Shown: in pieces, positions 4,928-30,287 of the stretch
How positions within the stretch are numbered: position 1 is the first letter of the stretch
How the letters are laid out: each line of letters begins with the position of its first letter
Source: Candidatus Zixiibacteriota bacterium
GTDB lineage: Bacteria > Zixibacteria > MSB-5A5 > GN15 > FEB-12
Direction: 5' to 3'
DNA length: 64,000 nucleotides
Assembly (NCBI GenBank): GCA_024276275.1
Contig: JAJRXM010000039.1
Location: 5,271 to 69,270, forward strand
Program-made: the position numbers and the translations under genes
The notes under the pieces: model-generated
Databases searched by the model: none
What the model was told of the DNA's origin: nothing
Seen by the model: the letters and a program-made list of their open reading frames with translations, nothing else

Positions 4928-4956
4928 TTGACAATCTTTTTGGAACTTTATATAAT
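4928..4956 (+). promoter_or_regulatory. consensus sigma70-type promoter upstream of the porU operon
   Basis: TTGACA (4928-4933), a 17-nt spacer and TATAAT (4951-4956). It lies about 90-140 nt upstream of the possible porU starts (TTG 5047 / ATG 5095). Confidence 0.6.
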
Positions 4957-5046
4957 GTATGAGTTTATACAAATAGAAAGGATACTTTATAGCTCTTAGT
5001 TAAAAGAATTGTTTGAACTGAAATATTAAAAGGTGTAACAATTAAT

Positions 5047-8000
5047 TTGAAAGAGCTTTATTGCGTCCAAAATCTTGTGAAGATACGCATTTTTATGTGT
5101 AATCTTCTCTATAAATCTTTGATACTTCTAGTCGGTATCTTCTCAACATACAGTCTTGTATCTGCGTCTGAGTCTGCCCAGATAATCAGTTCCACAAACA
5201 ATACGTTAACATTACATGTTACAATTGAACCACAAAGTCTGCATAGATACGTATCAGAACAAAATGAAGTAAGTTATTATCAGTCGCTTGTTGTAGCTGT
5301 TCCGTATGATGGCGAGTTGTCGATTGCAGGATTGACTTTGGGGGCATTAAATTCATCTAGCAAAACAGGGCAAAAAGTTCAAACAGCACGACCTGATAAA
5401 ATTATAGAATTTTCAGAACCATTATTTGTACGTGGTCGTAAATTTTTTACGGTTTATATCTTTCCTGTTACACCGAGTGGTGTGTATAAAAATATCGAGC
5501 TTACTCTGAATTTTACCGGTACAACTACAAACGGTAAGGTTATTTCAGAAGATTCACCGTTTGAAAAAATGCTGTCCGCAAAGGTTGTCAATTATAAACA
5601 GTCAAAACAGTTTACTGCTCCGCCGGTTCGGAACTTTGCATCGGGAACTACTGCAGGTCCTTTTTCCGGTTCTACCGAGTGGATTAAAATTGATATAAAT
5701 AAAAACGGACTGTATAAATTAACAGGAGCACAACTTGATGCTACCGGAATGACAGTTACCGGAGAAGCATCATCTTCAATCCATCTCTATAATGCAGGCG
5801 GAGCACAGCTTCCTGTTCCGAATGAACAGGATAGACCTCAATTTACTGAAATTGCTATAAAAGTTATTGATGGGGGAGATGGGACATTTGATAGTAATGA
5901 TTATATCTTATTTTATGGTGAATCTGTAAACAGATGGATTTATGATACGACCCAAGTATTGTATCGATCCCATTCTTATTCTGAAAAGAATGTCTATTGG
6001 TTGAATACTTCATCGCTTACAGCAGGTTTACGAATTGAAACTGTAGACGGTTCAATAAACGGAGTAGTAGGCGGTTCTGTAATCCAGACGCTTGACCGCT
6101 ATACCCGTCGGGTGCATGTAGAGCAAAATAAAACGTTACGCCGATGGAGTGATAACAAAACAAATGATTACTACACCTGGTATTGGACAAAAGAGAACAG
6201 CTTGTCATTTTTTGTTGCAACTGAAAATCTAATCAGCGGTGATACTGTTGATATAGTTCTATCAGGGAAAACAATTGATACAACCGGTTCAAACGATGAT
6301 GTAGGATATATTGATTTCTTTGTGAATAATATAAAAGGTATAAATAAATCGTGTAACTTATCAGGTTGTACGTATCGTTCGACATCGTTTGTTGACGGTT
6401 CCACTGCTATTGATTTATCATTGATGTTTAATTCAAATCTTCCCCCGTATTTTAACTTCCTGGAATTAGCGTATACGTCTTATAATCAACCGATAAATAA
6501 TCAACTTGATTTACCTTTGGGGCAGTTAACAGGCAACACAGAGATTGAAGTTATTAATACATTCAATTCAAACCCGTTAATTTTGGATATTTCTAATCCG
6601 TTACTGCCGAGAGAATTGCAAATTACTTCCTATGGCTCAAACAGTTTTTCTTTTTATGACAGTCTATCTATATCAAAGTATAATAGATATTTTCTTATGC
6701 CGGAGGCACAAAGTTTAAACCCGTTAGCAGTTTCATCTGTTACAACAAATGATTTGTATCTTACACAAAATCAGGTCGATTTGATTATTATTTCACCTGA
6801 ATTCCTACAACCGTCTTTGAGTGAATATATTGACTACCGTACAACCGACGGGTATTCGGTTCAAACAGTTTCAGTAGATGATATAATGGATAATTTCGGA
6901 TTTGGACTGTATGACCCGACTGCTATTCGTGATTTTCTCAAATTTAGTTATGAAAATTACCAAGACCCAAAACCTTCTGCGGTATTGTTTGTCGGTGACG
7001 GAAACTATGATTTTTTAAATAATCTATCATCAAACATACCGAATTATGTTCCGCCGTATACACACAGGATTGATAACACATCATCCGATGACAACTATGT
7101 TTATTTTGGTGATTTTGGCATTATTGATTCAGACACAACTTATGACACATCACAGATTTCCTTTAATAGAGGATTTGACATGATGACAGCCAGATGGCCG
7201 ATTCGTACTCGAGCTGATGTACAGGTTATAACTGATAAAATTAAGCTATATGAATCAAACAATAATTTTGGTAATTGGAGAAACAACATTTCATTGGTTG
7301 CAGACGATGAATTTGGAACACTCAACAATGAAGTTTTTCACACTACACAAACAGAGGAATTAGAAAAGTATCATCTCCCTCTTACTTTTAACCGTAACAA
7401 AATTTATCTTTGGGAATACCCTTTTGTAAACGGTAAAAAACCGGAAGTGAACACTAAAATTGTTAGTGCTTTTAACTCTGGTTCTTTACTTGTCAACTAT
7501 GTAGGTCACGGTAACCCCGATGTATGGGCTCATGAAAATGTTTTTAATAGAGCAGGTGATTTACCTCGACTATATAACGACTTAAAACTTCCTTTAGTTT
7601 TAGCGGCATCATGTGCTATCGGATTTTTTGATGATCCGCTTCGTGAAGGTATGGCTGAAGAACTCCTTGCTATGTCATCCGGCGGTGCTATCGGGATTAT
7701 TTCGGCTACACGGTTAGTATACTCCTCCGACAATGCTCAGTTTAACAGAAAAGTCTACGATGTTTTGTTTAGTAATAAATCTCTTTCTATGTGTGAGGCT
7801 TTGTACACCGCAAAATTAGAACGACAATATTTGGGGTCGGTACCAAGACCGCAAGTAAACGATAGAAACTATCTCTATTTTGGCGGTCCGTTTGTGAAAC
7901 TTGCAAAGCCACAATACAAAATAAATTTTTCATCAACCCCCGATTCATTAGTAGCATTAGGTCAGGCACGAGTTGTCGGTACAGTAGTTGATAATAACGG

Positions 8001-8967
8001 GTCCGTAATTTTAGAAAATGGAATTATTGAAATAGATGTGCTGGATTCTAAACGAAATAAAATATATCAACTTAAAAATCCTAACGGTCAGGTTACGAAT
8101 GAGGTTCCGTATGCTACGAACGGTCCGACGATTTTTCGAGGTTCGGCATCTGTGACCGACGGTCAGTTTGATTTCCGGTTTGTACCTCCTTTGGATATCG
8201 GTTTTGGAGGAGAAGGGGCTCAAATTTCTGTATATGCATCTTTTAACTCTGTTGATGCTTCCGGAATTATAGACTCTATTTCAATTTCTGATTCTATTGC
8301 CGTTACAAATGATTCTTTAGGACCGGTTATCGATGCTACTTTTTCGGATCATCAAAACTTCATTTCCGGTGACTTTATCAATAAAGGAGAATCATTGATT
8401 TTACAGCTTTCAGATGAGTCAGGAATTAACTTAGCAGGTGGATTAGGTCACGGTATTACCTTGGAAATTGATAATAAACCTGAAAAATTACTTAATTTGA
8501 CCTCATATTTTAAGTATGAACAAGATAAATTTAATACAGGTTCATTGGAATTCCCTCTTGATGATTTAGAAACCGGCGTCCACTCTTTCAAAGTAAAAGC
8601 GTGGGATAACGCCAATAATTTCGCTAAAATTGAGTTTGAAGCAGAAATTAAATCTAATTCTTCACTTCAGATTGTCAATTTGCTAAATTACCCGAATCCT
8701 ATGCGTGAATCTACTCGTTTTTCATTTAGTTTGACTCAATCTGTAGATAATTTTGTATTGGATATTTTTACTCTTTCAGGAAAAAAAATAAAAACTTTTA
8801 CTCGGCAATATCTTGAACCGACATATTATGACGATATAATATGGTATGGCAATGATGTTGACGGAGATAGAGTTGCCACCGAAGTATATATATTTAAAGC
8901 CACGGCATATTCGTCAAATGACGGAGATAAAGTGGAATCATTTGGAAAAATAATTTTAGTTAATTAA
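5047..8967 (+). CDS. porU: PorU-like C25 (gingipain-family) cysteine peptidase with a T9SS C-terminal domain; candidate T9SS sortase
   Basis: 1306 aa. The signal peptide is best from ATG 5095 (MCNLLYKSLILLVGIFSTYSLVSA). It has the C25 catalytic contexts VNYVGHGN (His codon 7507-7509) and LAASCAIGFF (Cys codon 7612-7614). The C-terminus NYPNPMRESTRFSFSL...LDIFTLSGKKI resembles the T9SS sorting domain. The gene lies immediately upstream of a PorV-like gene, as in the P. gingivalis porU-porV pair. Confidence 0.75.
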   Translation: MKELYCVQNLVKIRIFMCNLLYKSLILLVGIFSTYSLVSASESAQIISSTNNTLTLHVTIEPQSLHRYVSEQNEVSYYQSLVVAVPYDGELSIAGLTLGALNSSSKTGQKVQTARPDKIIEFSEPLFVRGRKFFTVYIFPVTPSGVYKNIELTLNFTGTTTNGKVISEDSPFEKMLSAKVVNYKQSKQFTAPPVRNFASGTTAGPFSGSTEWIKIDINKNGLYKLTGAQLDATGMTVTGEASSSIHLYNAGGAQLPVPNEQDRPQFTEIAIKVIDGGDGTFDSNDYILFYGESVNRWIYDTTQVLYRSHSYSEKNVYWLNTSSLTAGLRIETVDGSINGVVGGSVIQTLDRYTRRVHVEQNKTLRRWSDNKTNDYYTWYWTKENSLSFFVATENLISGDTVDIVLSGKTIDTTGSNDDVGYIDFFVNNIKGINKSCNLSGCTYRSTSFVDGSTAIDLSLMFNSNLPPYFNFLELAYTSYNQPINNQLDLPLGQLTGNTEIEVINTFNSNPLILDISNPLLPRELQITSYGSNSFSFYDSLSISKYNRYFLMPEAQSLNPLAVSSVTTNDLYLTQNQVDLIIISPEFLQPSLSEYIDYRTTDGYSVQTVSVDDIMDNFGFGLYDPTAIRDFLKFSYENYQDPKPSAVLFVGDGNYDFLNNLSSNIPNYVPPYTHRIDNTSSDDNYVYFGDFGIIDSDTTYDTSQISFNRGFDMMTARWPIRTRADVQVITDKIKLYESNNNFGNWRNNISLVADDEFGTLNNEVFHTTQTEELEKYHLPLTFNRNKIYLWEYPFVNGKKPEVNTKIVSAFNSGSLLVNYVGHGNPDVWAHENVFNRAGDLPRLYNDLKLPLVLAASCAIGFFDDPLREGMAEELLAMSSGGAIGIISATRLVYSSDNAQFNRKVYDVLFSNKSLSMCEALYTAKLERQYLGSVPRPQVNDRNYLYFGGPFVKLAKPQYKINFSSTPDSLVALGQARVVGTVVDNNGSVILENGIIEIDVLDSKRNKIYQLKNPNGQVTNEVPYATNGPTIFRGSASVTDGQFDFRFVPPLDIGFGGEGAQISVYASFNSVDASGIIDSISISDSIAVTNDSLGPVIDATFSDHQNFISGDFINKGESLILQLSDESGINLAGGLGHGITLEIDNKPEKLLNLTSYFKYEQDKFNTGSLEFPLDDLETGVHSFKVKAWDNANNFAKIEFEAEIKSNSSLQIVNLLNYPNPMRESTRFSFSLTQSVDNFVLDIFTLSGKKIKTFTRQYLEPTYYDDIIWYGNDVDGDRVATEVYIFKATAYSSNDGDKVESFGKIILVN

Positions 8968-8983
8968 TTTTTAGGAGAATTTA

Positions 8984-11713
8984 ATGAAACAATTAAAACG
9001 TTTGCTCTCTCTCACAATCTTCTTACTGCTGTTTTCATTTGTATCACAGACTTATGCTGATATATCTGATGCGGCATTATTGTATCTACGTATTGCTCCG
9101 GGTGCTCGTGCTGCCGGTATGGGAGAGGCGTATGTTGCTGTTGCTGATGATGCTACTTCAACCCATTGGAATCCTGCCGGATTAGGTGCCTCGCCATTAG
9201 CAACTAATTGGCAGAATAAAAATATCCCACAGTATTTACAACCGATTACCGAAATAGCTACGGTTAAAGCACGAGCCGGATCAGGACATAATCAATATGA
9301 TGTTTGGACTATCTCAGCTCAGGGACTGGTTAGGTTTGACAATCACAAGTGGTTTACCTATGAAACATTTTCAACAAGAACAGACCAAACCGTTTCAGGC
9401 ATCGTAAAAACGTATTTTAGCATAAAAGACGACCAAAAACTTGCTGAAGCTGTTGTTAAAGTTGCTGAAGCTAACTCCACTCGCTCGTTTGAAGAAGTCG
9501 AAAAGTTTGCCTCTGATGTTTTAAGTGCTGTTCCAGAAGATTACTCTGACATAGAAGGATTAGTTCTAGGACTTGATTCTCTGAAAGCCCTCTATTTAGA
9601 TTGTCGTATCAATTGGAGCCGTTATGTAGAAGCTGAAGAGATTTATAAAAACAGTATTAAAGATGAGTCATTAACTGAAAAAGAAATTGATAAGATCAAT
9701 TTTGCGGTAGAAAAATCTAGGACACGGTTTATTCCTGAAGAATTAAATATCAAATACTCTGATTTATTTACCGGGAAGTTGACTACGATTAAATCAATAG
9801 GGACTACTCTTTTAATTGGAACTGATAACGGGTTTTTTACTTTTAATGGAATAAATTGGAAAACATATACATTAGAAGACGGTTTACCTTCTTTGAATAT
9901 ACTTTCTATCTCATCTGTAGGGCCTACTGCATATATCGGTACAGATATGGGGCTTGTAAAATATAGTAATAAAAAACTATCCAAAGTGATTCTACCTGAA
10001 GATGTCCAAAACGGTGCAGTTACAGGAATCGGTGCTTCAAACAGTCTGGATATTTGGGTTGTTATCAACAACGAACTCTATAATTATGACGGTAAAAAGT
10101 GGTCTAACTCTACAACTTATACTGCTTTGCTTGATGATACCTATGAGACTATCGCAGAAAGAATATCTATTTTCAAAACGGATTCAAATATCAAAATAAT
10201 TGCGGATAGAATTAATTTACTTAATGTCATTAATCTAGCGGAAACAACAACTACTGTAGATACTGCTGCTGTTGATACTACTCTTGAACAAATATCTGAT
10301 TCTACTTTGGCAACTACTGTACAAACAACAGAAGAAACCGTAGCTGACAGTACCGAAAATCTTGTACCTTCTACAACTCACGTTCCCACTGAATTTACTA
10401 TTGAACCGGGTAAACCTGTCAAGGTTCCTTTTGCTATCGGTATTAAAGGTAAGATAAATAAAATATACACCAACGGTACTAATAATCTATGGATTGCTAC
10501 TGATATCGGTTTATATACATTTAAAAACGGTGAATGGAAAGCATCCGGTTATAAAACTATAACAGTTACTGAAGGTCAAACACTTGATGATATAGCAGGA
10601 GCGTATCCACACATGCTATTAGATAACGAAGGATATGTTTCTCTGTTAAAAGAAATCAACGGACTGGAAACATCTGACGGTCTTATAGCAGAACAATCTC
10701 TAAAAGTGTTTAGCAATCCGTTGGCATATAAAATCAATGATGTCAGTTCTAATGGTACCGGTTTATATGTGGCTACCGGACGTGGATTGTATGAATTACA
10801 TGGTACAACGTTGTCTAAAGTTGATATCGGCGGTATGGGCAACTCCAATATTTTAAATGTAAAAACTGAAGGTAACGAGATTTGGTTTGCCTCTGATAAA
10901 AAAATTGCTATAAAAGCAAGCGGTCGTTCTGATATCTCTTTGATGTTTGCTAAATGGCTTCCACAGCTTGCCGATGATATGTATTACGGTTTTCTCTCCG
11001 GTGCTACTAATATCAGCGGATGGGGTACTTTTGGCGGTAATATAACCTATATCAACTATGGTACGGTTCAAAGAAGAGGTCAGGGAAATACTGATGAAGG
11101 TGTGTTCTATCCTTTTGATATAGCTTTTACATTATCTTATGGCGGTTCAGTGCTTGATAAACTCAAAGGAGGGGTTTCGGCAAAATTTATATATTCTCAT
11201 TTGAGTTTGCAGGGTGCCGGAGCTGAAAAAGGTGCCGGAACTGCTACCGGAGTAGGTCTGGATTTTGGTATTCTATGGAATATAAGCAAACGATTTGATC
11301 TTGGGGCAGCTGTTACCAATATCGGTCCTGACATTTCTTATATCGATGCTGCTCAGTCCGACCCGTTACCAAGAAATCTTGCAATAGGAATTAAAACAAA
11401 TTTGTTGAGTTCTGAATATAGTCATGCTATCTTTACCGTCGAAGTAAATAAGTCATTGGTAGGAATCAATGACGGATTTAGTGAAGAACTTAAACAGTTA
11501 GTTATAAACGGTGGATTTGAATATGCATATTCAGATATTTTTGCTGCCCGTTTCGGATATATATGGGATGATGAGGGTGAAGTAAAAACTCCGACTCTCG
11601 GATTTGGTGTAACTCCGTTAAGTAATTTTAAATTTGATTTTGCTTATATTCCGAGCAATACTAATGCACCGTTAGCAAATACATTACGGATATCAATGCA
11701 GATAACCCCGTAA
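8984..11713 (+). CDS. porV: PorV/PorQ-family outer-membrane barrel with a roughly 580-aa internal insertion
   Basis: 909 aa. AGGAG at 8973-8977 precedes the start, and the protein has a signal peptide. The family-typical N-terminal strand motif is LRIAPGARAAGMGEAYVAVADDATSTHWNPAGLG. The barrel-like region resumes near nt 10930 (FGGNITYINYG...GVGLDFGILWN...LGAAVTNIGPDISY...LPRNLAIGIK). The segment between them carries repeated propeller-like motifs (LWIATDIGLYTFKNGEWK, LYVATGRGLYEL, IWVVINNELYNYDGKKW) and a Thr/Val-rich linker. Confidence 0.6.
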   Translation: MKQLKRLLSLTIFLLLFSFVSQTYADISDAALLYLRIAPGARAAGMGEAYVAVADDATSTHWNPAGLGASPLATNWQNKNIPQYLQPITEIATVKARAGSGHNQYDVWTISAQGLVRFDNHKWFTYETFSTRTDQTVSGIVKTYFSIKDDQKLAEAVVKVAEANSTRSFEEVEKFASDVLSAVPEDYSDIEGLVLGLDSLKALYLDCRINWSRYVEAEEIYKNSIKDESLTEKEIDKINFAVEKSRTRFIPEELNIKYSDLFTGKLTTIKSIGTTLLIGTDNGFFTFNGINWKTYTLEDGLPSLNILSISSVGPTAYIGTDMGLVKYSNKKLSKVILPEDVQNGAVTGIGASNSLDIWVVINNELYNYDGKKWSNSTTYTALLDDTYETIAERISIFKTDSNIKIIADRINLLNVINLAETTTTVDTAAVDTTLEQISDSTLATTVQTTEETVADSTENLVPSTTHVPTEFTIEPGKPVKVPFAIGIKGKINKIYTNGTNNLWIATDIGLYTFKNGEWKASGYKTITVTEGQTLDDIAGAYPHMLLDNEGYVSLLKEINGLETSDGLIAEQSLKVFSNPLAYKINDVSSNGTGLYVATGRGLYELHGTTLSKVDIGGMGNSNILNVKTEGNEIWFASDKKIAIKASGRSDISLMFAKWLPQLADDMYYGFLSGATNISGWGTFGGNITYINYGTVQRRGQGNTDEGVFYPFDIAFTLSYGGSVLDKLKGGVSAKFIYSHLSLQGAGAEKGAGTATGVGLDFGILWNISKRFDLGAAVTNIGPDISYIDAAQSDPLPRNLAIGIKTNLLSSEYSHAIFTVEVNKSLVGINDGFSEELKQLVINGGFEYAYSDIFAARFGYIWDDEGEVKTPTLGFGVTPLSNFKFDFAYIPSNTNAPLANTLRISMQITP

Positions 11714-11739
11714 ATTAATAAAGTCATAGGAGAGAACAA

Positions 11740-14700: not shown

Positions 14701-15039
14701 GGAAATCTGAATTTTGAATCTACAAAGTTACCTTCTGCCAAAACATACGCTGACAATCTTCCGGAAAATTCTTTTTATAATTACCCAAATCCTGTTATAA
14801 ACGGTACAACAACGATACGATATTTCTTAGGTGAAAATGCGAGTTCGGTTGAATTGGCAATTTTTGATTTAAGTGGTCAGGAAATTGAACGGTTCAATGG
14901 TCCGACAACCGGGTTGGTCGATAATGAGGTTCTCTGGAATTGTTCCGATATTACATCGGGAATATATAGGTGTGTGATTTCGGTGGAGTTTCCTAGCGGA
15001 ACAGAAAGATCATTTACTGATATTTCGATTATAAAATAA
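11740..15039 (+). CDS. secreted M6 (immune inhibitor A-like) zinc metalloprotease with FG-GAP/VCBS-like repeats and a T9SS C-terminal sorting domain
   Basis: 1099 aa with a TTG start 6 nt after GGAGAG. It has the HEFGHQLGLVDLY zinc motif (HEFGH codons 12601-12615), repeated DLNGDG / DLDLDGSKE / DVDLDGYPD calcium-type repeats, and the C-terminus NYPNPVINGTTTIRYFL...LAIFDLSGQEI...GIYRCVI. Confidence 0.75.
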   Translation: MLSGRLLVKIVITISFLYATAQIAVARENLYYGKKVQSETVKGENKVVRPCLAPRTGGLMEKYLERDKPWSLPKQALAADFLDTVKVLVLRFNFQTESPDDPNTTGLGRMNLTPFDEAALLESVGHTVDPPPHNADYFSAHLRALANYYEVVSEGKITLSWDVYPPQLDSAYQLPEQMNYYGKCDFADVVGGLENYFRDGIRVADTTTPEINFSQYESIFMFHAGSDRQNDIGFPETCNDLFTGFIKYANEDTVFVDNGSVFITNALMMPEQASQDNRATALNAVLAHEFGHQLGLVDLYSTATFISQLGDFALMDNNGFGTGIDFGFVVGRTFGAIPLFPTAWSRAHLGFVDVVDFRQGSDIQLVAAEVVSSGIKVARIPISDKEYYLLENRNVEVDGYVTGVQADSLTGVFMGPAYCIVCDTNQNGNITDITLSPEYDALMPGSGLLIYHIDERVAGLDYNFDGESNFDDNQLQWARDLNGTSVDRFISLVEGDGFVNFGGFYRSGFGRAEDMYRDDRNTAFTPNTNPQTIDNTGNNTRIAIDNITRVLDTTLIKPKLMDSVIQFDVTTEDLVQGFPVRAGAPRFHISPIADDLNGDGVPELIYVSGDLLSVVTTDGQDFLEQIDPCGCPPYQDSSFASIHPGRLNTIPLFIKLPADAYTMPVTGRFSDDADPNKLVAIGEQGRIDIFRVADINDDGQADPANSFSTGILGNPIALTFGDTLFALTDSGYVLRKTLLNSAYDTLMQFANDEYQGICRVDNVLAVLAGDSIETMAYFVDGNIIDSIALGEHYTLGPIYVDLDLDGSKELVAATLDGKIILVSINSILETNNISIKDQKDLGFTFMVNPIASDVDLDGYPDIVIGGTNSIYAFNYELTLKTSFPIEINKKFPNDHPINALIAADIETGGKPELIVPTEIGNLYSFGDKLTQDFPLSGGEQVIGSPVFLNDDTGGKLGYIGADGWFYLWHVDTDSVTNFWPMAGNNPSGNLNFESTKLPSAKTYADNLPENSFYNYPNPVINGTTTIRYFLGENASSVELAIFDLSGQEIERFNGPTTGLVDNEVLWNCSDITSGIYRCVISVEFPSGTERSFTDISIIK

Positions 15040-15050
15040 GGATTCGATAG

Positions 15051-15965
15051 ATGAAAAAATATATACTGAGTGCTTTACTTCTGATATGTCCCCTAACGGC
15101 AGATGCATCTGAGTTTTTACAACAATCAGAATTTGACGTAGCTCAATCAAAAATCAAGTACTCACTTTTAAACAGTGATATTGCAAGTCAAAAGTTTCAA
15201 GATTCTGAATCCGGTGAAATTACTTATAAAAACGGTAAATCCGATAGCAAAACTAATTCTTATAAATCTCCCGGGAAAGCGTTTGCTATGTCACTTTTAA
15301 TCCCCGGTATGGGACAGCTTTATGTCGGAGACTCCAAATTAAAATCTCTTGCATTTTTCGGTACAGAAGTAACAAGTTGGATACTTTTCTTTAAGTGGGG
15401 AAAAGATGCTGATGATTTAACTGCTGCGTATGAAAAGTTTAACAACGATCATTGGATAGAATCTCGTTATATTGATATGCTCCAATGGACTTATGGTTTG
15501 GAAAATGATGATAATACCAGTGGATTGTATCCTGAATTAAGTCACCATTTGCCTAAAACAAAAGTACAACAATACTATGAAATGACCGGTAAATATGACC
15601 AGTTTTCATGGGGATGGGATGATGCTATGCTGCTTTCAGATAGTACGGTTTATGGCGATTACAGTCTGAACAATCCATTTCCTGTTTTAAATAGCCAGGA
15701 AAATATCCCTTTTTCTGCCAGAAGAAATGCCTATGAAATTATGCGTGATGATGCCAACAATAAATACAGTCAGGCACGAAAAATGGTTTATGTTTCAATG
15801 ATAAATAGAATGTTTGCGGCATTTGAAGCATTGATTGCCGCCAAAAGAAATAATAGAAATAGTGACGGTGGTTCTATCTTATCATCGTTATCAGCCGAGG
15901 CATCGTTTAAAAGTTCCTATGTCAAACGTGACACGCCGTATATAACATTGAGCATGAAGTTTTAA
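15051..15965 (+). CDS. hypothetical envelope protein, DUF5683-like (paralog 1)
   Basis: 304 aa with a signal peptide. It carries the motif SLLIPGMGQLYVGDSKLKSL, a C-terminal helix INRMFAAFEALIAAKR, and ends in ...LSMKF (terminal Phe). Confidence 0.45.
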   Translation: MKKYILSALLLICPLTADASEFLQQSEFDVAQSKIKYSLLNSDIASQKFQDSESGEITYKNGKSDSKTNSYKSPGKAFAMSLLIPGMGQLYVGDSKLKSLAFFGTEVTSWILFFKWGKDADDLTAAYEKFNNDHWIESRYIDMLQWTYGLENDDNTSGLYPELSHHLPKTKVQQYYEMTGKYDQFSWGWDDAMLLSDSTVYGDYSLNNPFPVLNSQENIPFSARRNAYEIMRDDANNKYSQARKMVYVSMINRMFAAFEALIAAKRNNRNSDGGSILSSLSAEASFKSSYVKRDTPYITLSMKF

Positions 15966-15975
15966 GAGAGAAAAT

Positions 15976-16767
15976 ATGAGTAGACTATATAACATATCTG
16001 TTTTTATTATTATATCAGCACTAACTGTTCAAGTAAGTTATAGCATAGAACTAAGTCAGACACCAATACAAAATCAGTTAAAGAATTCAATTTTACTTGC
16101 TGCTGATAGTTGGAATCTTGACGGGAAAAAAGATGCTGATAATAATTATATTGTAACCTCTCAAGGTATAAAACAAAAAAAATCAGCATTCAAAGCAGCT
16201 CTTTATTCAGCTCTGCTTCCGGGTCTGGGTGAACACTATGTCGGCAATAGAACCAAAGCAAAAGTTTTCTTTACGACCGAGGCTCTTACGTGGATGAGTT
16301 ATATTGCTTTCCGGACCTATGGAGATTGGAAAAAAGATGATATGGTTCGTTATGCTGCCGGTAAAGCGGGAGCAACTTTAGACGGAAAAAATGATGAGTA
16401 TTTTGACTGGGTCGGGTTTTATAATTCGACTGAAGACTTTAATTCTCTTGGTCGGGTTTCTGACCCTTCAAGAGCTTATCTAACAGGTTCAGATAACTAT
16501 TGGCAATGGGAATCTGATAACGACCGTGAAAATTTTAGAAGTTTAAAAAACAGCAGCCGTACGGCATACAATAGAGCAGGATTTATGGTTGTGGCTGCTA
16601 TAGGAAATAGAATTATTTCAATTATCGATGCAATACGTGATGCCAAACGAGCTAATAGTCATGAAAAGATAGATATCTCAGAAAAAAAATCTTATAACTA
16701 TAAATTTGCGGTTGACCCTTTAAGTTATAACAGGCAATTCTCAATAACGGTCTATACACCGTTTTAA
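15976..16767 (+). CDS. hypothetical envelope protein, DUF5683-like (paralog 2)
   Basis: 263 aa. It carries the motif SALLPGLGEHYVGNRTKAKV, a C-terminal helix GNRIISIIDAIRDAKR, and ends in ...VYTPF. The architecture matches the upstream gene. Confidence 0.45.
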   Translation: MSRLYNISVFIIISALTVQVSYSIELSQTPIQNQLKNSILLAADSWNLDGKKDADNNYIVTSQGIKQKKSAFKAALYSALLPGLGEHYVGNRTKAKVFFTTEALTWMSYIAFRTYGDWKKDDMVRYAAGKAGATLDGKNDEYFDWVGFYNSTEDFNSLGRVSDPSRAYLTGSDNYWQWESDNDRENFRSLKNSSRTAYNRAGFMVVAAIGNRIISIIDAIRDAKRANSHEKIDISEKKSYNYKFAVDPLSYNRQFSITVYTPF

Positions 16768-17723
16768 TGGAAGCCAAGATGCGTATTCTTTTGATGCTGA
16801 TACTTTTGGTATCTATCAGCTGTTCTACAGTTGAAAAAAATGTCATACGTCAGGAAGTATCTCAATCTATAAAAGTTGATCTTGTTTTTGAAAAAGAAAT
16901 AAAAGGGGTTGTTTTTGGTCTCCCGTTGAGTAAGCCGTTTGGGCTTGCGGTTGATTTTAAGGGTGATGTTTATGTTGCCGATGCGGGGAATAACCGAATA
17001 CTGAAGTTTGATTCAACAATGAATCCGTTAAAACTGTTCGGTGGATTCGGTTCGGATCAGGGACTTTTTAATTTCCCGACATATATCAGTTTTGATAACG
17101 GTCTAAATCTGATGGTTTCCGATGAAAAAAATCAGCGTATAGCAAGATTTAATTCACAATTACAATACGTAGACCAAATTCTGTTTTCAGACATTGATGA
17201 CCCGCTAAAATTCGGATACCCCTCAGGAATTACATTTACAAATTATGGAGAAATTTGGGTTGCCGACAGAGATAACAACCAAATCGCAATTTTTAATAAT
17301 ATAGGCAAGTATTCACACTCACTCGGACAGTTTGGATATGCCGGGGGACAGTTGTCCTCACCTGAAAAAATAATCAGAGATATGAACGGTGATTTCTTGG
17401 TATGCGATGCCGGCAACAAACGAATTGTACGGTATGATGAATATGCAAATTATCTCAATGAGTTTTCGCTAGACTTGTTTGAATATCCGAGTGCGGTTGC
17501 TTTACAACAAGATAAACTATTAGTATTAGACTCTGACATCGGTTCTATTTTTATTTTCAAAAAAAGCGGTCAGTTTATAGGCGAAATAAGTTCAAAGTTA
17601 CTGGGTGATAAAACAAATTTGTTAAATCCGACTGATTTACTTTTTATCTCAAACGATAGAATAATAATATCTGATACCGGCAATGACAGGTTAGTTATCG
17701 GCAAGCTCATTATAGAAGAATAA
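16767..17723 (+). CDS. NHL-repeat beta-propeller lipoprotein
   Basis: 318 aa with a lipobox-like VSISC. It has five or six NHL-type repeats (VYVADAGNNRILKFD, MVSDEKNQRIARFN, IWVADRDNNQIAIFN, LVCDAGNKRIVRYD, IISDTGNDRLVI). The start overlaps the upstream stop (TAATG). Confidence 0.75.
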   Translation: MEAKMRILLMLILLVSISCSTVEKNVIRQEVSQSIKVDLVFEKEIKGVVFGLPLSKPFGLAVDFKGDVYVADAGNNRILKFDSTMNPLKLFGGFGSDQGLFNFPTYISFDNGLNLMVSDEKNQRIARFNSQLQYVDQILFSDIDDPLKFGYPSGITFTNYGEIWVADRDNNQIAIFNNIGKYSHSLGQFGYAGGQLSSPEKIIRDMNGDFLVCDAGNKRIVRYDEYANYLNEFSLDLFEYPSAVALQQDKLLVLDSDIGSIFIFKKSGQFIGEISSKLLGDKTNLLNPTDLLFISNDRIIISDTGNDRLVIGKLIIEE

Positions 17724-17733
17724 CGGGTTCGTT

Positions 17734-20700
17734 ATGCTTCGAATAATAAACGGTATACTTATTCTCTTTCTGCTTTCCTTTAGTACAGTTACTGCTCAAA
17801 CAAAACTTCTTTTTGTCGGTAACGAAATAAAAAAAAATATTTATATAAATGCACATTTTATTGTAAATAACTCCGATAGCTTAGTTTTAAATCAAACCGT
17901 CTTACAAAGGGATATTGACTACCGATTTAATCAAAAGTTTAAACGGTTTGAACTGCTTATTAAGCATGATTCCGAATTTGATAGTTTGACTGTGCAGTAT
18001 CGTCAGCTTCCTTCATGGCTTCAGCAGAGGTACGGAAAAGCATTACCCGAAGTTACTCCCCAAACAAAAACATCTACCATAATTTTTCCTTCAGGAAATT
18101 ATAAAAAGCATCGCACAGAATCTGATATGAAACTGAGCGGTTCTAAATCCTTTAGGCTTACATCCTCTCAAACAGGTAGCACAGGGTTTAACCAAACGCT
18201 TGATCTTAATTTGTCGGGACACCTGGCTAAAAATCTTACTTTACAAGGTACAATCTCAGACAGGGGATACAACCCGTCTTATGGAACTTCCAATAGTCGT
18301 CTTAATGAACTTGATAAAATAAATATTAAGATAGCATCACCAAATTTCTCGGCACAAATAGGTGATATAATAATAGAGAGCAACAAAAGTTTCCGTGTGA
18401 GAGAAAAGAAAATTTCAGGTATTAATCTATCGGTTCATAATAAAAATATGCAGATTGGAATGATAGCCGCTCGTCCAAAAGGTCGGTATAATTCAGTTTC
18501 ATTTTTTGGGCAGAATAACAAACAGGGACCTTACCAAATAAAATCGCAATCGGTACGACAAGCTATTATCCCGAGTTCCGAAACTGTTTGGCTTGACGGA
18601 ATTCAGTTAAAACGGGGAGCAAATGATGACTACACTCTTGATTATCCGAACGGGCAGATTACTTTTAATGTCAATAACTTAATAGATGTCAGAAGTCGTA
18701 TAGTCATCGACTACGAACCGCTGTCATCTGAGTATAAACAAGAATACTTACATGCGAGTTCCGGATTTAATTCTACCGACTCAGTCTACAAATTTTCTTT
18801 TAACTGGATTCGTGAGGGAGATGATAAAGATGAAAATCTTTCGCAGTCGTTTTCATCTGCCGATGAGCAGCTGCTTGCCAATACTTTAGGCGAGGAACTA
18901 ATTTTTAAATCAGGAATAATTTCAGACACACTTGGTTCCTATCAAATTCTATCTGATTCACTTCCCGATACAGTCTATCAATTTGTAGGTGAAAATGCTG
19001 GGCAATATGATGTTCGTTTTTCGTATATTGATTCGGGAAAGGGAGACTATGTATATAGAGGAGCAAACCGATACCAATATGTCGGATATGGAAAAGGTGA
19101 TTTTCTTCCTGTTATTTTGTTAAATACTCCTAAAAGAACAGATTATCTTGGGGGGGCTTTTGTACTTACTGACGATAAAATAGGTCAGTTGCAAACGGAA
19201 TGGAACCAAAGCAGAAAAATCAACAATCTGTTTGCGGTAGATAATAGTTCCGATAATAATAATTACTACCGATTTGCCTATACAAAATTATTTGGAACTT
19301 CAAAAAACAAAGTAAGTGCATTATATCGAAAAAAAGATTTTAAATACTCAGAAAGAAATCGAGTCAACCAAGCTGATTATACCTATCAATACTATCTCCC
19401 TATACAAAGTAAGTTTAATTCAGCCGAACAACTAACATCTGTCAATTCTGTTATCAATATCTTTAGCAGTTTTACAATTCAATCAGGATATAGCTTGTTG
19501 AACTATTCCAATCAGTTTCAATCAAAAAACAGTAAAGTCGCCTTAAAGTTTTCTCCATTAAAAAAACTAAAATTTTTAGGCGATGCCAATATCATTCGGG
19601 CAGATTTATTAAATACTTCCCAAAAACAACAGGGACGTTCTGATATTGTAAATATACAGGGTGATTATAATTTTTACAAAAACTATACCCTTACAAGTTC
19701 TTTTGCCAAAACAAAACGGTCCAACGACTACAGTTTATTAGTCGGAGGATTCTCACACGATGAATATACTATTCGTATCGCCGACAAAAATTCTGAAATT
19801 TTATATCAATATTATACAGAAGATACCCTTTCTCTTGTATGGGAAAAAAAGAAAAACAGAAAAAGGATTCAATTCAAGTCGGAAAATAAAATTAAAAAAC
19901 TTAACTATACACTGCATGTCCGTTACCAAGAGCTTGATAATCTGACGAACAAACAAACATCACTGCTTACTTTGGCAAATTTTATCTATACTAACAGAAA
20001 ACAAAATTTACAAATACAGACATCATATACACTTTCCGATGAAACACGGTTTAGCAAAGGAATACGCTACTTAGAGGTAAACAACGGCGAGGGAGACTAT
20101 ATTTTTTCAGACAGTCAATATATACCTGAAGTCGGCGGGAATTATATACTTGTAGAGGAACTACTCTCTGAAACCGCACCGGTAAAACGAGGTGAAAAAT
20201 CATTCTCGCTCTCTAAAAGATGGGACAAAGTGTATGTGACCTTTAATTCGTTCATAAGTGAAGAATTGTTTGCTTCGGAATCCCGCAGTCGTAAATGGAT
20301 TTTTCCGGTTTTCTCCGATTCAAAATTGTCTTATCTTTTCTTCAACCGATTTTTAAAAGGCTCGCTTAAAGCATTTCCGATAAGCGGGGGATATTTTTTC
20401 ACTTTGAATTTTTCAGAAAAAAAAGAGAAACGATTTATCAACCAGCAAGACCGTTTAAAAGAGTCGTTAAAAAGTGAATTTATTTTTAATCAAAAAATAG
20501 AAAATATATTTATTGAAGAAAGACTGGAACTGTTTCAGGACGAACGTGATGCGTACTATTTTAGAGAAGGTGATATTAACGGACTAGCTTTAGTCGGAAA
20601 AGTAAAACAGGTAACTGATAAAAATGAATATGGAGTGCAGGTTAAATATAGAAGAGCTGTTTCAGCTGATTCTAAAATATCACAGATTTATATGTTTCTT

Positions 20701-20964
20701 TTGGAAAACAGATTTAAAATACAAAAACATGGTGAGCTAAAAGTAAGTTCAGAATTTTATCGTTCAAACAAAAATGATATCGTATCTTCACAAAGTTATC
20801 TCTTAACAGACAATCGCCCCGGAAGGCAGGGAGTTATATGGTCGCTGATTTTTCGGGCAAAATTAAAAAATGAATTCAGATTAAATTTTACTCTACAGGG
20901 CAGACACTCTGATATAAATGAGGCACGCATTTTTGCAAGGACTGAGTTTATTGCTCAATTTTAA
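17734..20964 (+). CDS. large outer-membrane protein with a SprA-like N-terminal region (short SprA paralog candidate)
   Basis: 1076 aa. The signal peptide ends TVTA/Q and the C-terminal residue is Phe (EFIAQF). Segments align by eye to the SprA encoded at 45698-51814: GINLSVHNKNMQIGMIAARPKG versus GLKTEAQVGNLRLTAIASQEKG, and IIPSSETVWLDGIQLKRGANDDYTLDYPNGQITF...RIVIDYEP versus IIEGSERITVNGEILKKGIDYDIQYDFGQVTL...QIKVDFEYAP. Confidence 0.5.
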   Translation: MLRIINGILILFLLSFSTVTAQTKLLFVGNEIKKNIYINAHFIVNNSDSLVLNQTVLQRDIDYRFNQKFKRFELLIKHDSEFDSLTVQYRQLPSWLQQRYGKALPEVTPQTKTSTIIFPSGNYKKHRTESDMKLSGSKSFRLTSSQTGSTGFNQTLDLNLSGHLAKNLTLQGTISDRGYNPSYGTSNSRLNELDKINIKIASPNFSAQIGDIIIESNKSFRVREKKISGINLSVHNKNMQIGMIAARPKGRYNSVSFFGQNNKQGPYQIKSQSVRQAIIPSSETVWLDGIQLKRGANDDYTLDYPNGQITFNVNNLIDVRSRIVIDYEPLSSEYKQEYLHASSGFNSTDSVYKFSFNWIREGDDKDENLSQSFSSADEQLLANTLGEELIFKSGIISDTLGSYQILSDSLPDTVYQFVGENAGQYDVRFSYIDSGKGDYVYRGANRYQYVGYGKGDFLPVILLNTPKRTDYLGGAFVLTDDKIGQLQTEWNQSRKINNLFAVDNSSDNNNYYRFAYTKLFGTSKNKVSALYRKKDFKYSERNRVNQADYTYQYYLPIQSKFNSAEQLTSVNSVINIFSSFTIQSGYSLLNYSNQFQSKNSKVALKFSPLKKLKFLGDANIIRADLLNTSQKQQGRSDIVNIQGDYNFYKNYTLTSSFAKTKRSNDYSLLVGGFSHDEYTIRIADKNSEILYQYYTEDTLSLVWEKKKNRKRIQFKSENKIKKLNYTLHVRYQELDNLTNKQTSLLTLANFIYTNRKQNLQIQTSYTLSDETRFSKGIRYLEVNNGEGDYIFSDSQYIPEVGGNYILVEELLSETAPVKRGEKSFSLSKRWDKVYVTFNSFISEELFASESRSRKWIFPVFSDSKLSYLFFNRFLKGSLKAFPISGGYFFTLNFSEKKEKRFINQQDRLKESLKSEFIFNQKIENIFIEERLELFQDERDAYYFREGDINGLALVGKVKQVTDKNEYGVQVKYRRAVSADSKISQIYMFLLENRFKIQKHGELKVSSEFYRSNKNDIVSSQSYLLTDNRPGRQGVIWSLIFRAKLKNEFRLNFTLQGRHSDINEARIFARTEFIAQF

Positions 20965-20965
20965 T

Positions 20966-22579
20966 ATGAAAAAAATAATATTCTACATAAGCTGTCTTAT
21001 AATTTTCACCGAATACTCAAGTGGCACAGTATTGCAATTTATAGATACAACAGATATTGCTATTCAGAATAAAATTGAGCAAAACAAATCATTACATAAT
21101 GCAGATTCACTCTATACATATTTTATCGACAACGGTTATCTTGATGTTTCAATAACCAATTTAAATGACACTCTGTTAATATCATCAGGGTCTCAATATT
21201 TTCTTAGAAATATCTATTTAAATTCTCTAATAATTACAAAAAATACAACGCCTGAAAAATTCACAAAAGAAACTGTAACAACCGAGATAGAAAAAACAAT
21301 TCAAAATGTAAACAAAGACGGGTATCAATTTGCAACTGTTGTTGTTGAGTCTACAGTTGTACATGATAAGATGGTTGACTTGTTCTGTTCTTTAAACAAA
21401 GGACCTCAAGTTGTTTTGGATTCTTTGATTTTTGAAGGACTCACAAAAACGCAAAAGCCGATACTGCATAAATATATTACCCTTGATGATTCACTCATCA
21501 CACCGAAACTTTTACGCACAATTGAAAAAGATGTGCGGGAAATACCGTTTGTGCAATTTGTTCCACCGATAAAACAAGAGTTACTGCAAGGTTATCAATC
21601 TGCCAATCTTATCATTCCGTTAAAAGAACGAAAAAATATCTTGTTTGAGGGTGGGGGAGGATATCTTTCCGATCAGGATCTATTTCTGTGGAATATTTCA
21701 TTACAATTTCAAAATATGTTTGGAGCAGGACGAGAAATATCTGTTCTTTCACAAAAGAAAGATATCAATCACCAAAATTTAACACTCGAATACAAACAAC
21801 CTCTTTTTGTATTAGGCATAGGTTCGGCAGGTTTTAAAATTCAGACAAGAGACTATCGTGACCAATTTTATGAATTTGTCATAAACTCTCAATTTCAAAC
21901 TTCCTATAAGAAGAAATTCAATTTTGGTACTTCGGCACAATACAAAACTGTAGAGCAGGAGAATAACCTCTCGTATCGTTCAGCTGAATTATCACTTTCG
22001 GTGAGCAATGATAAACTAAACTTAAAGGTAAAAAATAGAACCGATAAATTGATCTATGACTGGAAACTCAGTTATGGAAATAGAAAATATAAAAATGATA
22101 CTAACCTGACTATATCTTCACACAGTTCTTTTAATGAATCTCGTTTTGAAATAAAAACTCAGTTTTTAACTCCGATTAAAAACAGTTTGATGTTTTTTAT
22201 CAGTAGTAATCTACAAAGTTACCTTACAAATGAAAACATACCGCCACTTGCCGAGTTATACTTAATCGGCGGGACAGGTTCTATACGTGGATTCAAAGAT
22301 GAACAGTTTCCGTCAATACGTAATCTTATTGTAACGGTTGAACCTCAATACCAATTTGAAACCGGCAATCTGTTTATCTTCTACGACGGTGGATATATAT
22401 ATAATAGAACAGCTTCAGTAATTTCTGATTTTGATGAAACGACAATTTATCGTTATGGATATGGGATAGGTCTTTCGTTTCTAAATAATTCTCAATTTCT
22501 AAAAATTTCATTTGGTTGGAATAAAGAGGTCTCTTTTGATAATCCCAGAATTTCTTTACTTTTAAAAACCGGATTATAA
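20966..22579 (+). CDS. Omp85/BamA-family outer-membrane protein
   Basis: The ATG at 20966 (MKKIIFYISCLIIF signal) lies 1 nt after the upstream stop. The track ORF start at 20918 overlaps the upstream gene and is less likely. It carries the family motif LYLIGGTGSIRGFKDEQF and has beta-strand-rich, Y/F/N/S-rich composition. Confidence 0.7.
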   Translation: MKKIIFYISCLIIFTEYSSGTVLQFIDTTDIAIQNKIEQNKSLHNADSLYTYFIDNGYLDVSITNLNDTLLISSGSQYFLRNIYLNSLIITKNTTPEKFTKETVTTEIEKTIQNVNKDGYQFATVVVESTVVHDKMVDLFCSLNKGPQVVLDSLIFEGLTKTQKPILHKYITLDDSLITPKLLRTIEKDVREIPFVQFVPPIKQELLQGYQSANLIIPLKERKNILFEGGGGYLSDQDLFLWNISLQFQNMFGAGREISVLSQKKDINHQNLTLEYKQPLFVLGIGSAGFKIQTRDYRDQFYEFVINSQFQTSYKKKFNFGTSAQYKTVEQENNLSYRSAELSLSVSNDKLNLKVKNRTDKLIYDWKLSYGNRKYKNDTNLTISSHSSFNESRFEIKTQFLTPIKNSLMFFISSNLQSYLTNENIPPLAELYLIGGTGSIRGFKDEQFPSIRNLIVTVEPQYQFETGNLFIFYDGGYIYNRTASVISDFDETTIYRYGYGIGLSFLNNSQFLKISFGWNKEVSFDNPRISLLLKTGL

Positions 22580-25451: not shown

Positions 25452-25460
25452 ATAGAAGAT

Positions 25461-28437: not shown

Positions 28438-28448
28438 GGGGACTAAAG

Positions 28449-29447: not shown

Positions 29448-29461
29448 GGATATATTTTTGT

Positions 29462-30283: not shown

Positions 30284-30287
30284 AACA

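Follow-up and report, generated by a model that had tools for sequence, protein, structure and literature searches.

The locus considered here belongs in part to the system for type IX secretion (T9SS) and lies on contig JAJRXM010000039.1 of a Candidatus Zixiibacteriota bacterium (NCBI GenBank assembly GCA_024276275.1). The whole stretch of DNA that was analyzed, 64,000 nucleotides from positions 5,271 to 69,270 of the forward strand, is referred to as the window, and all coordinates are window positions. The locus comprises eight genes, g1 to g8, all on the + strand, that run from a candidate promoter at 4928 to a stop codon at 22579. These genes encode a PorU sortase (g1), a PorV/PorQ-family barrel (g2), an M6-like metalloprotease with a T9SS C-terminal domain (CTD) (g3), two DUF5683-like paralogs (g4 and g5), an NHL-repeat propeller that is a probable lipoprotein (g6), a giant predicted outer-membrane β-barrel (g7), and an Omp85-family protein (g8). 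Here, we read this unit as a conserved Zixibacteria outer-membrane operon of joined modules, in which a T9SS cargo-processing locus is linked to a separable giant-barrel module, and we give this composite reading as a whole a probability of about 0.5. An earlier examination of the DNA without database searches, the sequence-only reading, had assigned the eight proteins to families, and seven of these eight calls hold in profile searches, AlphaFold2 models with Foldseek, and ortholog alignments.

Organization of the Locus

The eight open reading frames (ORFs) span 5047–8967, 8984–11713, 11740–15039, 15051–15965, 15976–16767, 16767–17723, 17734–20964, and 20918–22579. The intergenic gaps from g1 to g8 are 16, 26, 11, 10, −1, 10, and 1 nt, where the last figure assumes that g8 starts at ATG 20966 (its longest ORF begins at 20918). 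The ORF listing thus confirmed the gene layout and spacing given in the sequence-only reading. For g1, the longest ORF begins at a TTG (5047), and the ATG at 5095, which yields a normal signal peptide, MCNLLYKSLILLVGIFSTYSLVSA, is judged from the sequence to be the more likely start.

A candidate sigma-70-type promoter, TTGACA-17 nt-TATAAT, is located at 4928–4956 (+) inside the 358-nt gap upstream of g1. As had been proposed, it matches the consensus at 12 of 12 positions. It is the sole perfect −35/−10 match on either strand of the 64 kb window, in which 0.12 are expected, and 12 of 100 shuffled versions of the window contained at least one perfect match. Weaker promoter-like sites and terminator-like sites occur in the window at a frequency equal to chance, and the window scan found no intergenic terminator-like sites. 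The GC content is 0.33–0.39 throughout the window, and the nearest homologs of the window proteins are labeled Zixibacteria. Horizontal transfer of the cluster was considered and rejected, as the GC content is level, with no step at the cluster, and gives no sign of it.

The canonical SprA/Sov translocon gene (45698–51814, +) lies 23 kb away, outside the cluster, and served as the comparator for g7. Its 2038-residue product, already recognized in the sequence-only reading, scores 592 bits against TIGR04189 (cutoff 200) and also matches PF14349. No T9SS motor or ring genes were found in the cluster or elsewhere in the window, and the cluster contains no separate PorQ or PorZ gene.

The Proposed Cargo-Processing Genes g1 to g3

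The first gene, g1 (5095–8967, +), encodes PorU, the T9SS C-terminal signal peptidase/sortase. The protein scores 686 bits against the PorU equivalog model NF033707 (cutoff 420), falls below the cutoff of the PorU2 model NF052324 (150 bits, cutoff 450), and matches Peptidase_C25 (PF01364) with an E value of 1e-77. It aligns with Porphyromonas gingivalis PorU (6za2) over ~755 residues (E 1e-64), and this alignment sets the histidine of GHG and the cysteine of …aasCa… against their 6za2 counterparts. This His/Cys pair is catalytic in PorU (PMC10202324). In its sequence, g1 looks like a canonical PorU that has kept the dyad.

The second gene, g2 (8984–11713, +), encodes a 909-residue barrel of the PorV/PorQ family. 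It lies above the cutoffs of the PorV_fam model NF033709 for the PorV/PorQ subfamily (234 bits, cutoff 90) and of the Pfam PorV model PF19572 (80.6 bits, cutoff 27), and below those of the PorV equivalog NF033710 (180 bits, cutoff 250), the PorQ model (74 bits, cutoff 220), and the PorV2 model (40 bits, cutoff 325). A profile built from 23 g2 orthologs finds Flavobacterium johnsoniae PorV (6h3i_F) with an E value of 3.6e-43. The match to this PorV is split: the part of g2 up to the WNPAG motif corresponds to PorV residues 3–64, and g2 residues 648–906 correspond to PorV residues 71–392. Directly after WNPAG, between PorV residues 64 and 71, begins an insertion of ~570 residues (about residues 68–645; 9185–10918, +), which is kept in the orthologs. 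At 909 residues with this large insertion, g2 is not a compact FadL-type barrel of about 400 residues.

The insertion consists of a Reg_prop-type β-propeller and a LysM-like segment. Its profile matches the sensor propellers of Bacteroides hybrid two-component systems (4a2l, E 3.5e-18), and Pfam searches of the 23 orthologs returned LysM in nine, Reg_prop in eight, and PorZ_N_b_propeller in three (best 5.5e-7). In FadL-family barrels, the NPA motif is part of the N-terminal hatch. Because of this topology, the insertion would most likely emerge on the periplasmic side of the membrane, a location that would suit a LysM-like module.

The third gene, g3 (11740–15039, +), encodes a zinc metalloprotease with FG-GAP repeats (FG-GAP_3, 8.6e-8) and a type A T9SS CTD. 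The sequence-only reading had called it an M6 protease, a call that is retained as M6-like because every M6 family score is below its cutoff: 283 bits for NF052323 (cutoff 600), 68 bits for TIGR03296 (cutoff 111), and 15.8 bits for PF05547 (cutoff 22). The motif HEFGHxLGLxDxY (nt 12601–12639) has its H, E, H, D, and Y residues unchanged throughout 44 orthologs, with near invariance at the remaining fixed positions. Judged by this motif the active site is intact, unlike the "inactivated" type that NF052323 names. The CTD (residues 1015–1099; 14782–15036, +) bears out the earlier description of g3 as CTD-tagged cargo. TIGR04183 scores 25.5 bits (cutoff 23) over residues 1015–1080 of 1099, that is, at the extreme C-terminus, Pfam Por_Secre_tail scores 25.4 bits, just under its gathering score of 27, and the g3 ortholog of a distant metagenome contig (L085, described below) has a clear PF18962 match. 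The g3 protein is probably a fixed partner of the locus rather than random cargo.

The Proteins Encoded by g4 to g6 and g8

The genes g4 (15051–15965, +) and g5 (15976–16767, +) encode paralogous secreted proteins that resemble DUF5683 (PF18935). Their scores, 20.6 bits for g4 and 24.4 bits for g5, are both under the gathering score of 26.7, and 23 of 26 g4/g5 orthologs match DUF5683 at E ≤ 0.01 (best 9e-10). Hidden Markov models (HMMs) of the two cross-match with E values down to 1e-23. Each of the two starts with a signal peptide, contains the conserved motif KS..KA..S...PG.GQ.Y, and ends in Phe. As a side observation, five of the 26 orthologs also match DUF6677 (best 5e-6), which hints that the PG.GQ.Y hairpin motif is common to DUF5683 and DUF6677.

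The g6 gene (16767–17723, +) encodes an NHL-repeat β-propeller (PF01436, 2.5e-29, 100 bits, cutoff 20). A Cys follows directly after the signal sequence (…LLVSISC), by which g6 is a probable lipoprotein. Orthologs of g6 are found directly upstream of a g7-family gene in Zixibacteria, in L085, in a KSB1 genome (L086), and in a further locus, L087.

The last gene of the cluster, g8 (20966–22579, +), encodes a TamA-like member of the Omp85 family with three POTRA domains and a predicted 16-strand barrel. The g8 protein itself has no Pfam or NCBIfam match at E ≤ 0.01; PF01103 is present in 20 of 29 proteins returned as its homologs, 10 of which also have PF07244 (POTRA). Its AlphaFold2 model (predicted local distance difference test (pLDDT) score 83.9) contains three β-α-α-β-β (POTRA) units and about 16 strands. 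A Foldseek search with this model returned BamA (E 4e-24) and TamA (4c00, template modeling (TM) scores 0.62/0.61), and the loop-6 motif IRGF is present in the sequence.

The Predicted Giant Barrel g7

The g7 gene (17734–20964, +) encodes a 1076-residue protein of an unannotated family that is predicted to be a giant outer-membrane β-barrel. Its sequence has no Pfam or NCBIfam match at E ≤ 0.01, including PF14349 and TIGR04189, and a profile of 70 g7 homologs found nothing at E ≤ 1 among the sequences of solved structures, SprA included. The 119 homologs collected across the Fibrobacteres-Chlorobi-Bacteroidetes (FCB) superphylum are without exception free of Pfam domains, and the database names of the family are only "hypothetical" or "outer membrane beta-barrel protein".

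The AlphaFold2 model of g7 (pLDDT 85.9, predicted TM score 0.74) shows a signal peptide, a small N-terminal β domain (residues 23–90), a disordered linker (residues 97–128), and then long strands up to the C-terminal …AQF. The long strands number about 38–40, as counted from the secondary-structure string of the model and not from its coordinates, and are interrupted by two inserted domains at residues 259–330 and 369–462. Foldseek comparison of the model with the PDB returned barrels only. SprA occupies ranks 2, 3, 11, and 39 with TM scores of 0.21–0.29, and BtuB, MtrB, FimD, and LptD appear alongside; matches to the model that are this generic and of such low TM score give no family assignment. 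Two other identities were considered and rejected. TamB is inconsistent with the lack of a DUF490 match, with the signal peptide and C-terminal Phe, and with structural neighbors that are all barrels, and LptD is inconsistent with the lack of an OstA or LptD model match and with the low position of LptD in the Foldseek ranking.

Comparison of g7 with SprA

The g7 protein contains two copies of a ~70-residue β-sandwich domain of the type present in SprA. Domain A is the N-terminal copy (residues 23–95; 17800–18018, +), and domain B is inserted in the barrel (residues 264–335; 18523–18738, +). Profile-to-profile alignment with hhalign used a diverse SprA profile of 40 representative sequences. 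The g7 segment 264–363 aligns with SprA residues 628–722 (hhalign probability 97.5%, E 5.2e-12), and this alignment continues past the domain into the next two strands. Residues 23–95 align with the same SprA domain (residues 617–691; probability 93.1%, E 3.2e-7).

The specificity of this domain was examined at three levels. When the domain HMMs were searched against all six-frame ORFs of the window, they matched g7 and SprA only (E 3–4e-11), the one match outside g7 being residues 624–693 of the window SprA. The same HMMs match 260–261 of 267 SprA-family sequences. Among the 9394 ORFs of 86 fetched loci, they match the g7 orthologs only. Conservation within the g7 family peaks in domain B, where Q264, G265, P266, Y267, G289, D299, and R322 are invariant, and the shared domain is likewise a well-conserved block within SprA.

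Outside the shared domain, the similarity is weaker. The N-terminal strands of g7 (residues 126–262) align with SprA residues 158–306 with a probability of 24.6% (E 8e-4), with the paired motifs SG, Q.L.L.SG.L, GDI versus GNT, QG, and ARPKG versus SQEKG. More weak matches to SprA, colinear with these, are found in the middle and at the C-terminus of g7, and an HMM of the g7 N-terminal strands gave only weak matches to the 267 SprA sequences. When both domains were masked, g7 scored against the diverse SprA profile with a P value of 0.0015, compared with 0.08–0.16 for Omp85 and PorV control profiles, which makes a similarity between the two barrel sequences suggestive under this profile. The sequence region covered by the SprA models, the cap included, is absent from g7, which also lacks the sequence making up most of the SprA inserts.

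In light of these comparisons, the g7 family appears to share a signature module with SprA and is probably a distant, half-length relative of it, and its sequence places g7 outside the SprA family in its current definition. The sequence-only reading had called g7 a SprA-like barrel and had named the absence of a significant SprA-family hit or fold as grounds for giving up that description. The description stands in part. The domain present twice, the comparable predicted number of strands, and the weak colinear N-terminal match (probability 24.6%) agree with it; the lack of any SprA model match and the low Foldseek TM scores (0.22–0.29) do not, and strictly read, the grounds named for giving it up apply by half.

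Conservation and Modularity of the Cluster

A scan of species-representative genomes yielded 80 loci, nearly all from Zixibacteria and some under other labels that come from binning pipelines. The genes g1 to g8 are colinear in almost all of these loci that have enough flanking sequence, down to about 30% identity in g7, and are followed after g8 by a UbiA gene, a gene for a 271-residue protein, and a MoxR gene. On the complete chromosome CP070756.1, the gaps within the cluster are 6–18 nt with one overlap. The order of the genes is thus strongly conserved among relatives, which favors the sequence-only reading over the alternative it had raised of an arrangement not conserved in any relative. 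The most distant complete set is that of the metagenome contig L085, in which g7 is 27% identical and g1 to g9 are all orthologous with 21–37% identity; much of the remaining downstream neighborhood differs from that of the Zixibacteria loci.

Other lineages keep parts of the set. The KSB1 genome L086 has orthologs of only g6, g7, and g8 (HMM E about 1e-55), and in L087 an NHL gene lies 2 nt upstream of a g7-like gene with nothing else of the set. Because KSB1 keeps only g6–g8 and L087 only the NHL gene and g7, this third module is separable. The distribution indicates that the cluster is composed of nested modules: a core of NHL lipoprotein and barrel, to which the Omp85 gene is added, and then PorU, PorV, the M6-like protease, and the DUF5683 proteins in Zixibacteria and the L085 lineage. 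For the eight genes, joined modules are the better description, since the barrel module (g6–g8) occurs without PorU and PorV in other lineages.

At the Ignavibacteria locus of a g7-like gene, the two unannotated neighbors tested (542 and 634 residues) have no Omp85 similarity, and the family HMMs of g2–g11 matched no other ORF. On the complete Zixibacteria chromosome CP070824.1 (L030, 441–7288), which retains g4–g8, the place of PorU, PorV, and the M6-like gene upstream is taken by genes for an M4 (thermolysin-type) protease, a TPR/hydrolase protein, and an aldo-keto reductase. A 137-residue ORF of this chromosome still aligns with the g3 C-terminus (HMM E 8e-17) and may be a remnant of a rearrangement.

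Several further occurrences of the family were recorded. A locus labeled Candidatus Deferrimicrobium (L026) carries a full-length Zixibacteria-type g7 (9950–13240, 35% identity) without other cluster genes and next to a Ser/Thr kinase-TPR protein, either on a mis-binned contig or as a real relocation. The full Zixibacteria-type cluster, at 31–39% identity, is present in L009, L014, L028, L033, L038, L040, and other loci labeled "uncultured Ignavibacteriales", and the contig L002, of a different Ignavibacteriae-labeled assembly, has nothing of the set but a distant g7-like gene (27% identity). The taxonomy given for these Ignavibacteriales and Ignavibacteriae assemblies looks unreliable. In Nonlabens sp. 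(L004, 10001–13411), a 1136-residue protein of the g7 family is encoded by a stand-alone gene beside acetyl-CoA carboxylase genes. Such stand-alone g7-family genes are found in cultivable Flavobacteriia (Nonlabens xylanidelens and relatives).

Neighboring Genes

The gene that follows the cluster, g9 (22617–23462, +), encodes a UbiA-family prenyltransferase (UbiA, 1.6e-35). Its best NCBIfam matches, all below cutoff, are of the geranylgeranylglycerol-phosphate geranylgeranyltransferase type (archaeal-type ether-lipid enzymes). In almost every Zixibacteria locus long enough to show it, and in L085 (15054–15812), the gene after g8 is a UbiA gene, which is not present at this place in KSB1. The stop codon of g8 at 22579 is not a demonstrated end of the operon because g9, which has the same orientation, begins 37 nt further on, and the gap contains no terminator-like site. 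The unit could possibly extend into g9, which may therefore belong to the same transcription unit.

The gene after g9 is split into two overlapping ORFs of 122 and 182 residues in different frames (23559–24439). The two correspond to the N-terminal and the C-terminal portion of one 271-residue ortholog in CP070756.1 (E 8e-22 and 9e-33), and the split is a frameshift, from either a pseudogene or an assembly error. Further downstream (24462–32838), genes for a MoxR AAA ATPase, a DUF58 protein, an unannotated 354-residue protein, a BatA/VWA protein, a VWA protein, a TPR protein, BatD, and another TPR protein make up a complete Bat/MoxR-type set, which is syntenic with the cluster across Zixibacteria. 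Bacillithiol genes (BshC, a GT4 glycosyltransferase, and a PIG-L deacetylase) stand in a row at 35026–38511, and the same trio lies downstream in L085 (19255–22790). Directly after the canonical sprA, at 51857–56042, an M28 peptidase gene precedes the genes of the selenocysteine machinery, SelA and SelB.

Proposed Working of the Locus and Alternative Explanations

The working proposed here takes the family assignments, folds, domain sharing, spacing, and synteny described above as its observed basis, and from these we infer every interaction and the direction of transport. Module 1 (g1–g3) would serve in T9SS cargo processing, and g3 would itself be exported by the T9SS. CTD proteins, including g3 and probably PorU itself, would cross the outer membrane through the canonical SprA encoded 23 kb away, be carried by or docked on the PorV-family protein g2, and then be cut by PorU, in line with the described attachment pathway of handling by PorV and cutting by PorU (PMC10202324, PMC5562754). 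The insertion in g2, a putative glycan-binding-type propeller with a LysM-like module, could replace PorZ (PMC8545088) if it is exposed on the surface. If it is periplasmic, it could anchor the complex on peptidoglycan, as PorE does (PMC12773672). Module 2 (g4–g5), the two DUF5683 paralogs, has no role assigned in the scheme. Module 3 (g6–g8), the separable unit of an NHL lipoprotein, a roughly 38-strand barrel, and a TamA-like Omp85 protein, may provide an additional very large outer-membrane pore or platform in g7 that is tied to the processing site of module 1, with g6 as its plug or lid, a pair that can be likened to LptD/LptE and to SprA/Plug. The g8 protein would be the dedicated Omp85 insertase of g7, and g8 together with g6 would resemble BamA with BamB.

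Several observations weigh against this composite reading. The g7 protein fails every SprA family model (PF14349, TIGR04189, and solved SprA by profile), and the masked g7 scores against a Zixibacteria-only SprA profile with a P value of 0.029, equal to that of the controls. A g7-like gene stands alone in L088, in an Ignavibacteria genome, and in Nonlabens, and on the chromosome CP070824.1 PorU and PorV are not adjacent to g4–g8. The contacts between the products are putative throughout. The synteny, moreover, takes in genes that are clearly unrelated (UbiA, MoxR, and the aerotolerance genes of the Bat type), and conserved adjacency alone is therefore weak evidence of a common function.

This last point leads to the alternative that survives best, namely that the genes are adjacent without a common function. 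The genes g1–g3 would then be ordinary T9SS attachment genes, and g6–g8, perhaps with g4–g5, an unrelated outer-membrane system, for example a large uptake or export pore that has a lipoprotein and a TamA-like factor for its assembly, or a unit of general envelope biogenesis, with the gene order frozen across the phylum. The run of synteny through UbiA, MoxR, DUF58, and BatA–E speaks for such an explanation, and so does the independence of module 3 from PorU and PorV, which it lacks in KSB1 and L087 and from which it is split in CP070824.1. The positions of g7-like genes among housekeeping genes in Nonlabens and Ignavibacteria and the generic barrels returned by Foldseek also fit. However, the gaps of −1 to 26 nt and the lack of intergenic terminator-like sites argue for co-transcription, and the set g1–g8 survives in L085 at 21–37% identity despite a mostly different downstream neighborhood. 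In addition, the domain specifically common to SprA ties g7 to T9SS hardware, and every lineage in which the g7 family was found belongs to the T9SS-bearing FCB group. We regard mere adjacency as unlikely on this balance.

The sequence-only reading had described a cluster that looks like a second, self-contained T9SS-type module and could be a dedicated secretion-and-attachment unit. Spelled out in full, in this model the unit would work parallel to the canonical SprA, with g7 as a shortened SprA-type translocon, g2 as the carrier, g1 as the sortase, g3 as the cargo, and g8 as the insertase. Its attraction lies in the two g7 copies of a domain that, in the sequences examined here, SprA alone shares, in the colinear weak barrel matches, and in a predicted strand number of about 38–40 that is near the 36 of SprA (PMC10994853). 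The operon has a fixed CTD protein whose catalytic motif is invariant, the whole set is kept in L085 at 21–37% identity, and the existence of NCBIfam PorU2, PorV2, and M6-like models indicates that secondary sorting sets on such a plan appear to exist. Against this stand the lack in g7 of the SprA cap region, which helps to bind the CTD (PMC10994853), and of any SprA model match, as well as the occurrence of g6–g8 without PorU/PorV in KSB1, of g6–g7 in L087, and of g7 alone elsewhere. The weakest point is that g1 looks like a canonical PorU (686 bits, cutoff 420) rather than PorU2 (150 bits, cutoff 450) while nothing shows a duplicate: no second PorU or PorV turned up, although no copy count per genome was made. 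The word "second" is for these reasons not upheld; nor is "self-contained", as the cluster has no energizing components and its barrel module occurs elsewhere without PorU and PorV. A dedicated second unit is improbable.

Beyond the composite reading of joined modules, a bolder interpretation of g7 may be considered, which we hold to be speculative and rather doubtful. The g7 family would be an unrecognized half-size relative of SprA across the FCB group (Zixibacteria, KSB1, Calditrichota, Ignavibacteria, and some Flavobacteriales), with an NHL plug or lid and, in some lineages, a TamA-like insertase of its own. It would form a second giant outer-membrane protein conduit, wired in Zixibacteria to PorU and an enlarged PorV. 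If true, this conduit would give the T9SS an alternative exit, or it would represent a simpler translocon form that has survived.

Significance and Comparison with Known Systems

The origin of SprA, to our knowledge the largest single-chain barrel described, and the smallest core with which it would still work are questions of interest. A half-length relative with one conserved SprA block and without the cap would show which parts of SprA are essential, and g7 may itself be another giant outer-membrane pore. The pairing of a giant barrel with a TamA-like Omp85 protein and a propeller lipoprotein bears on the assembly of very large barrels. PorU, a PorV that bears a propeller and a LysM-like module, and a fixed M6-like CTD protease together suggest how the attachment step is organized outside Bacteroidota, where it has been little studied. 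Homologs in the cultivable Nonlabens open the barrel family to experiment.

The literature searched contained nothing on a Zixibacteria T9SS, DUF5683, PorU2, SprA paralogs, or a PorU/PorV/Omp85 cluster, in agreement with the sequence-only reading, which knew of no described arrangement of this kind. As judged from their sequences, the T9SS parts are ordinary in type, and what appears new among them is a PorV that has taken up a propeller and an M6-like CTD protein, fixed in the locus, with an intact active-site motif. New above all is the giant barrel family with the SprA signature domain, a lipoprotein, and its own Omp85.

The closest described counterpart of the cargo-processing genes is the PorU/PorV/PorQ/PorZ attachment complex of P. 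gingivalis (PMC5562754, PMC8545088, PMC10202324). The two have in common a C25-type PorU sortase with a His/Cys dyad, an adjoining PorV/PorQ-family gene, a Reg_prop/PorZ-type propeller, and a CTD protein. Unlike in P. gingivalis, the propeller is not a separate CTD protein and is inserted, with a LysM-like segment, in the g2 barrel after the NPA motif, and by FadL-family topology it may be periplasmic, unlike PorZ. The present cluster also co-encodes the M6-like protease, the two DUF5683 proteins, the NHL lipoprotein, the giant barrel, and the Omp85 protein. The three NCBIfam models NF052324 (PorU2), NF052325 (PorV2), and NF052323 (T9SS-dependent M6-like inactivated metalloprotease) describe the same three protein types as g1–g3, which match all three. 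This trio, compared here by model names and scores only, shows that a grouping of PorU-like, PorV-like, and M6-like proteins has already been recognized by curators elsewhere. The present genes differ from it in that all matches are below cutoff (150/450, 40/325, and 283/600), PorU is canonical, and the metal-binding motif of g3 is intact.

In the barrel module, g8 resembles TamA and BamA in its three POTRA domains, predicted 16-strand barrel, and IRGF motif, and the presence of a propeller lipoprotein gene, g6, in the same module recalls BamB. Unlike for TamA, no TamB/DUF490 partner is encoded and the adjoining gene encodes a barrel, and unlike BamB, g6 is an NHL propeller and not of the BamB type, with a putative contact to g8. 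SprA/Sov, the 36-strand T9SS translocon with an extracellular cap and a lateral opening (6h3i, 8gl8; PMC10994853), is the system to which g7 can best be compared. The g7 protein is half as long (1076 versus 2038–2400 residues), carries the shared domain twice, with one copy at the N-terminus, and has an NHL lipoprotein and an Omp85 gene as partners. Like SprA, it is predicted to be a very large single-chain barrel, and it has in common with SprA the ~70-residue β-sandwich domain and the same two strands that follow it.

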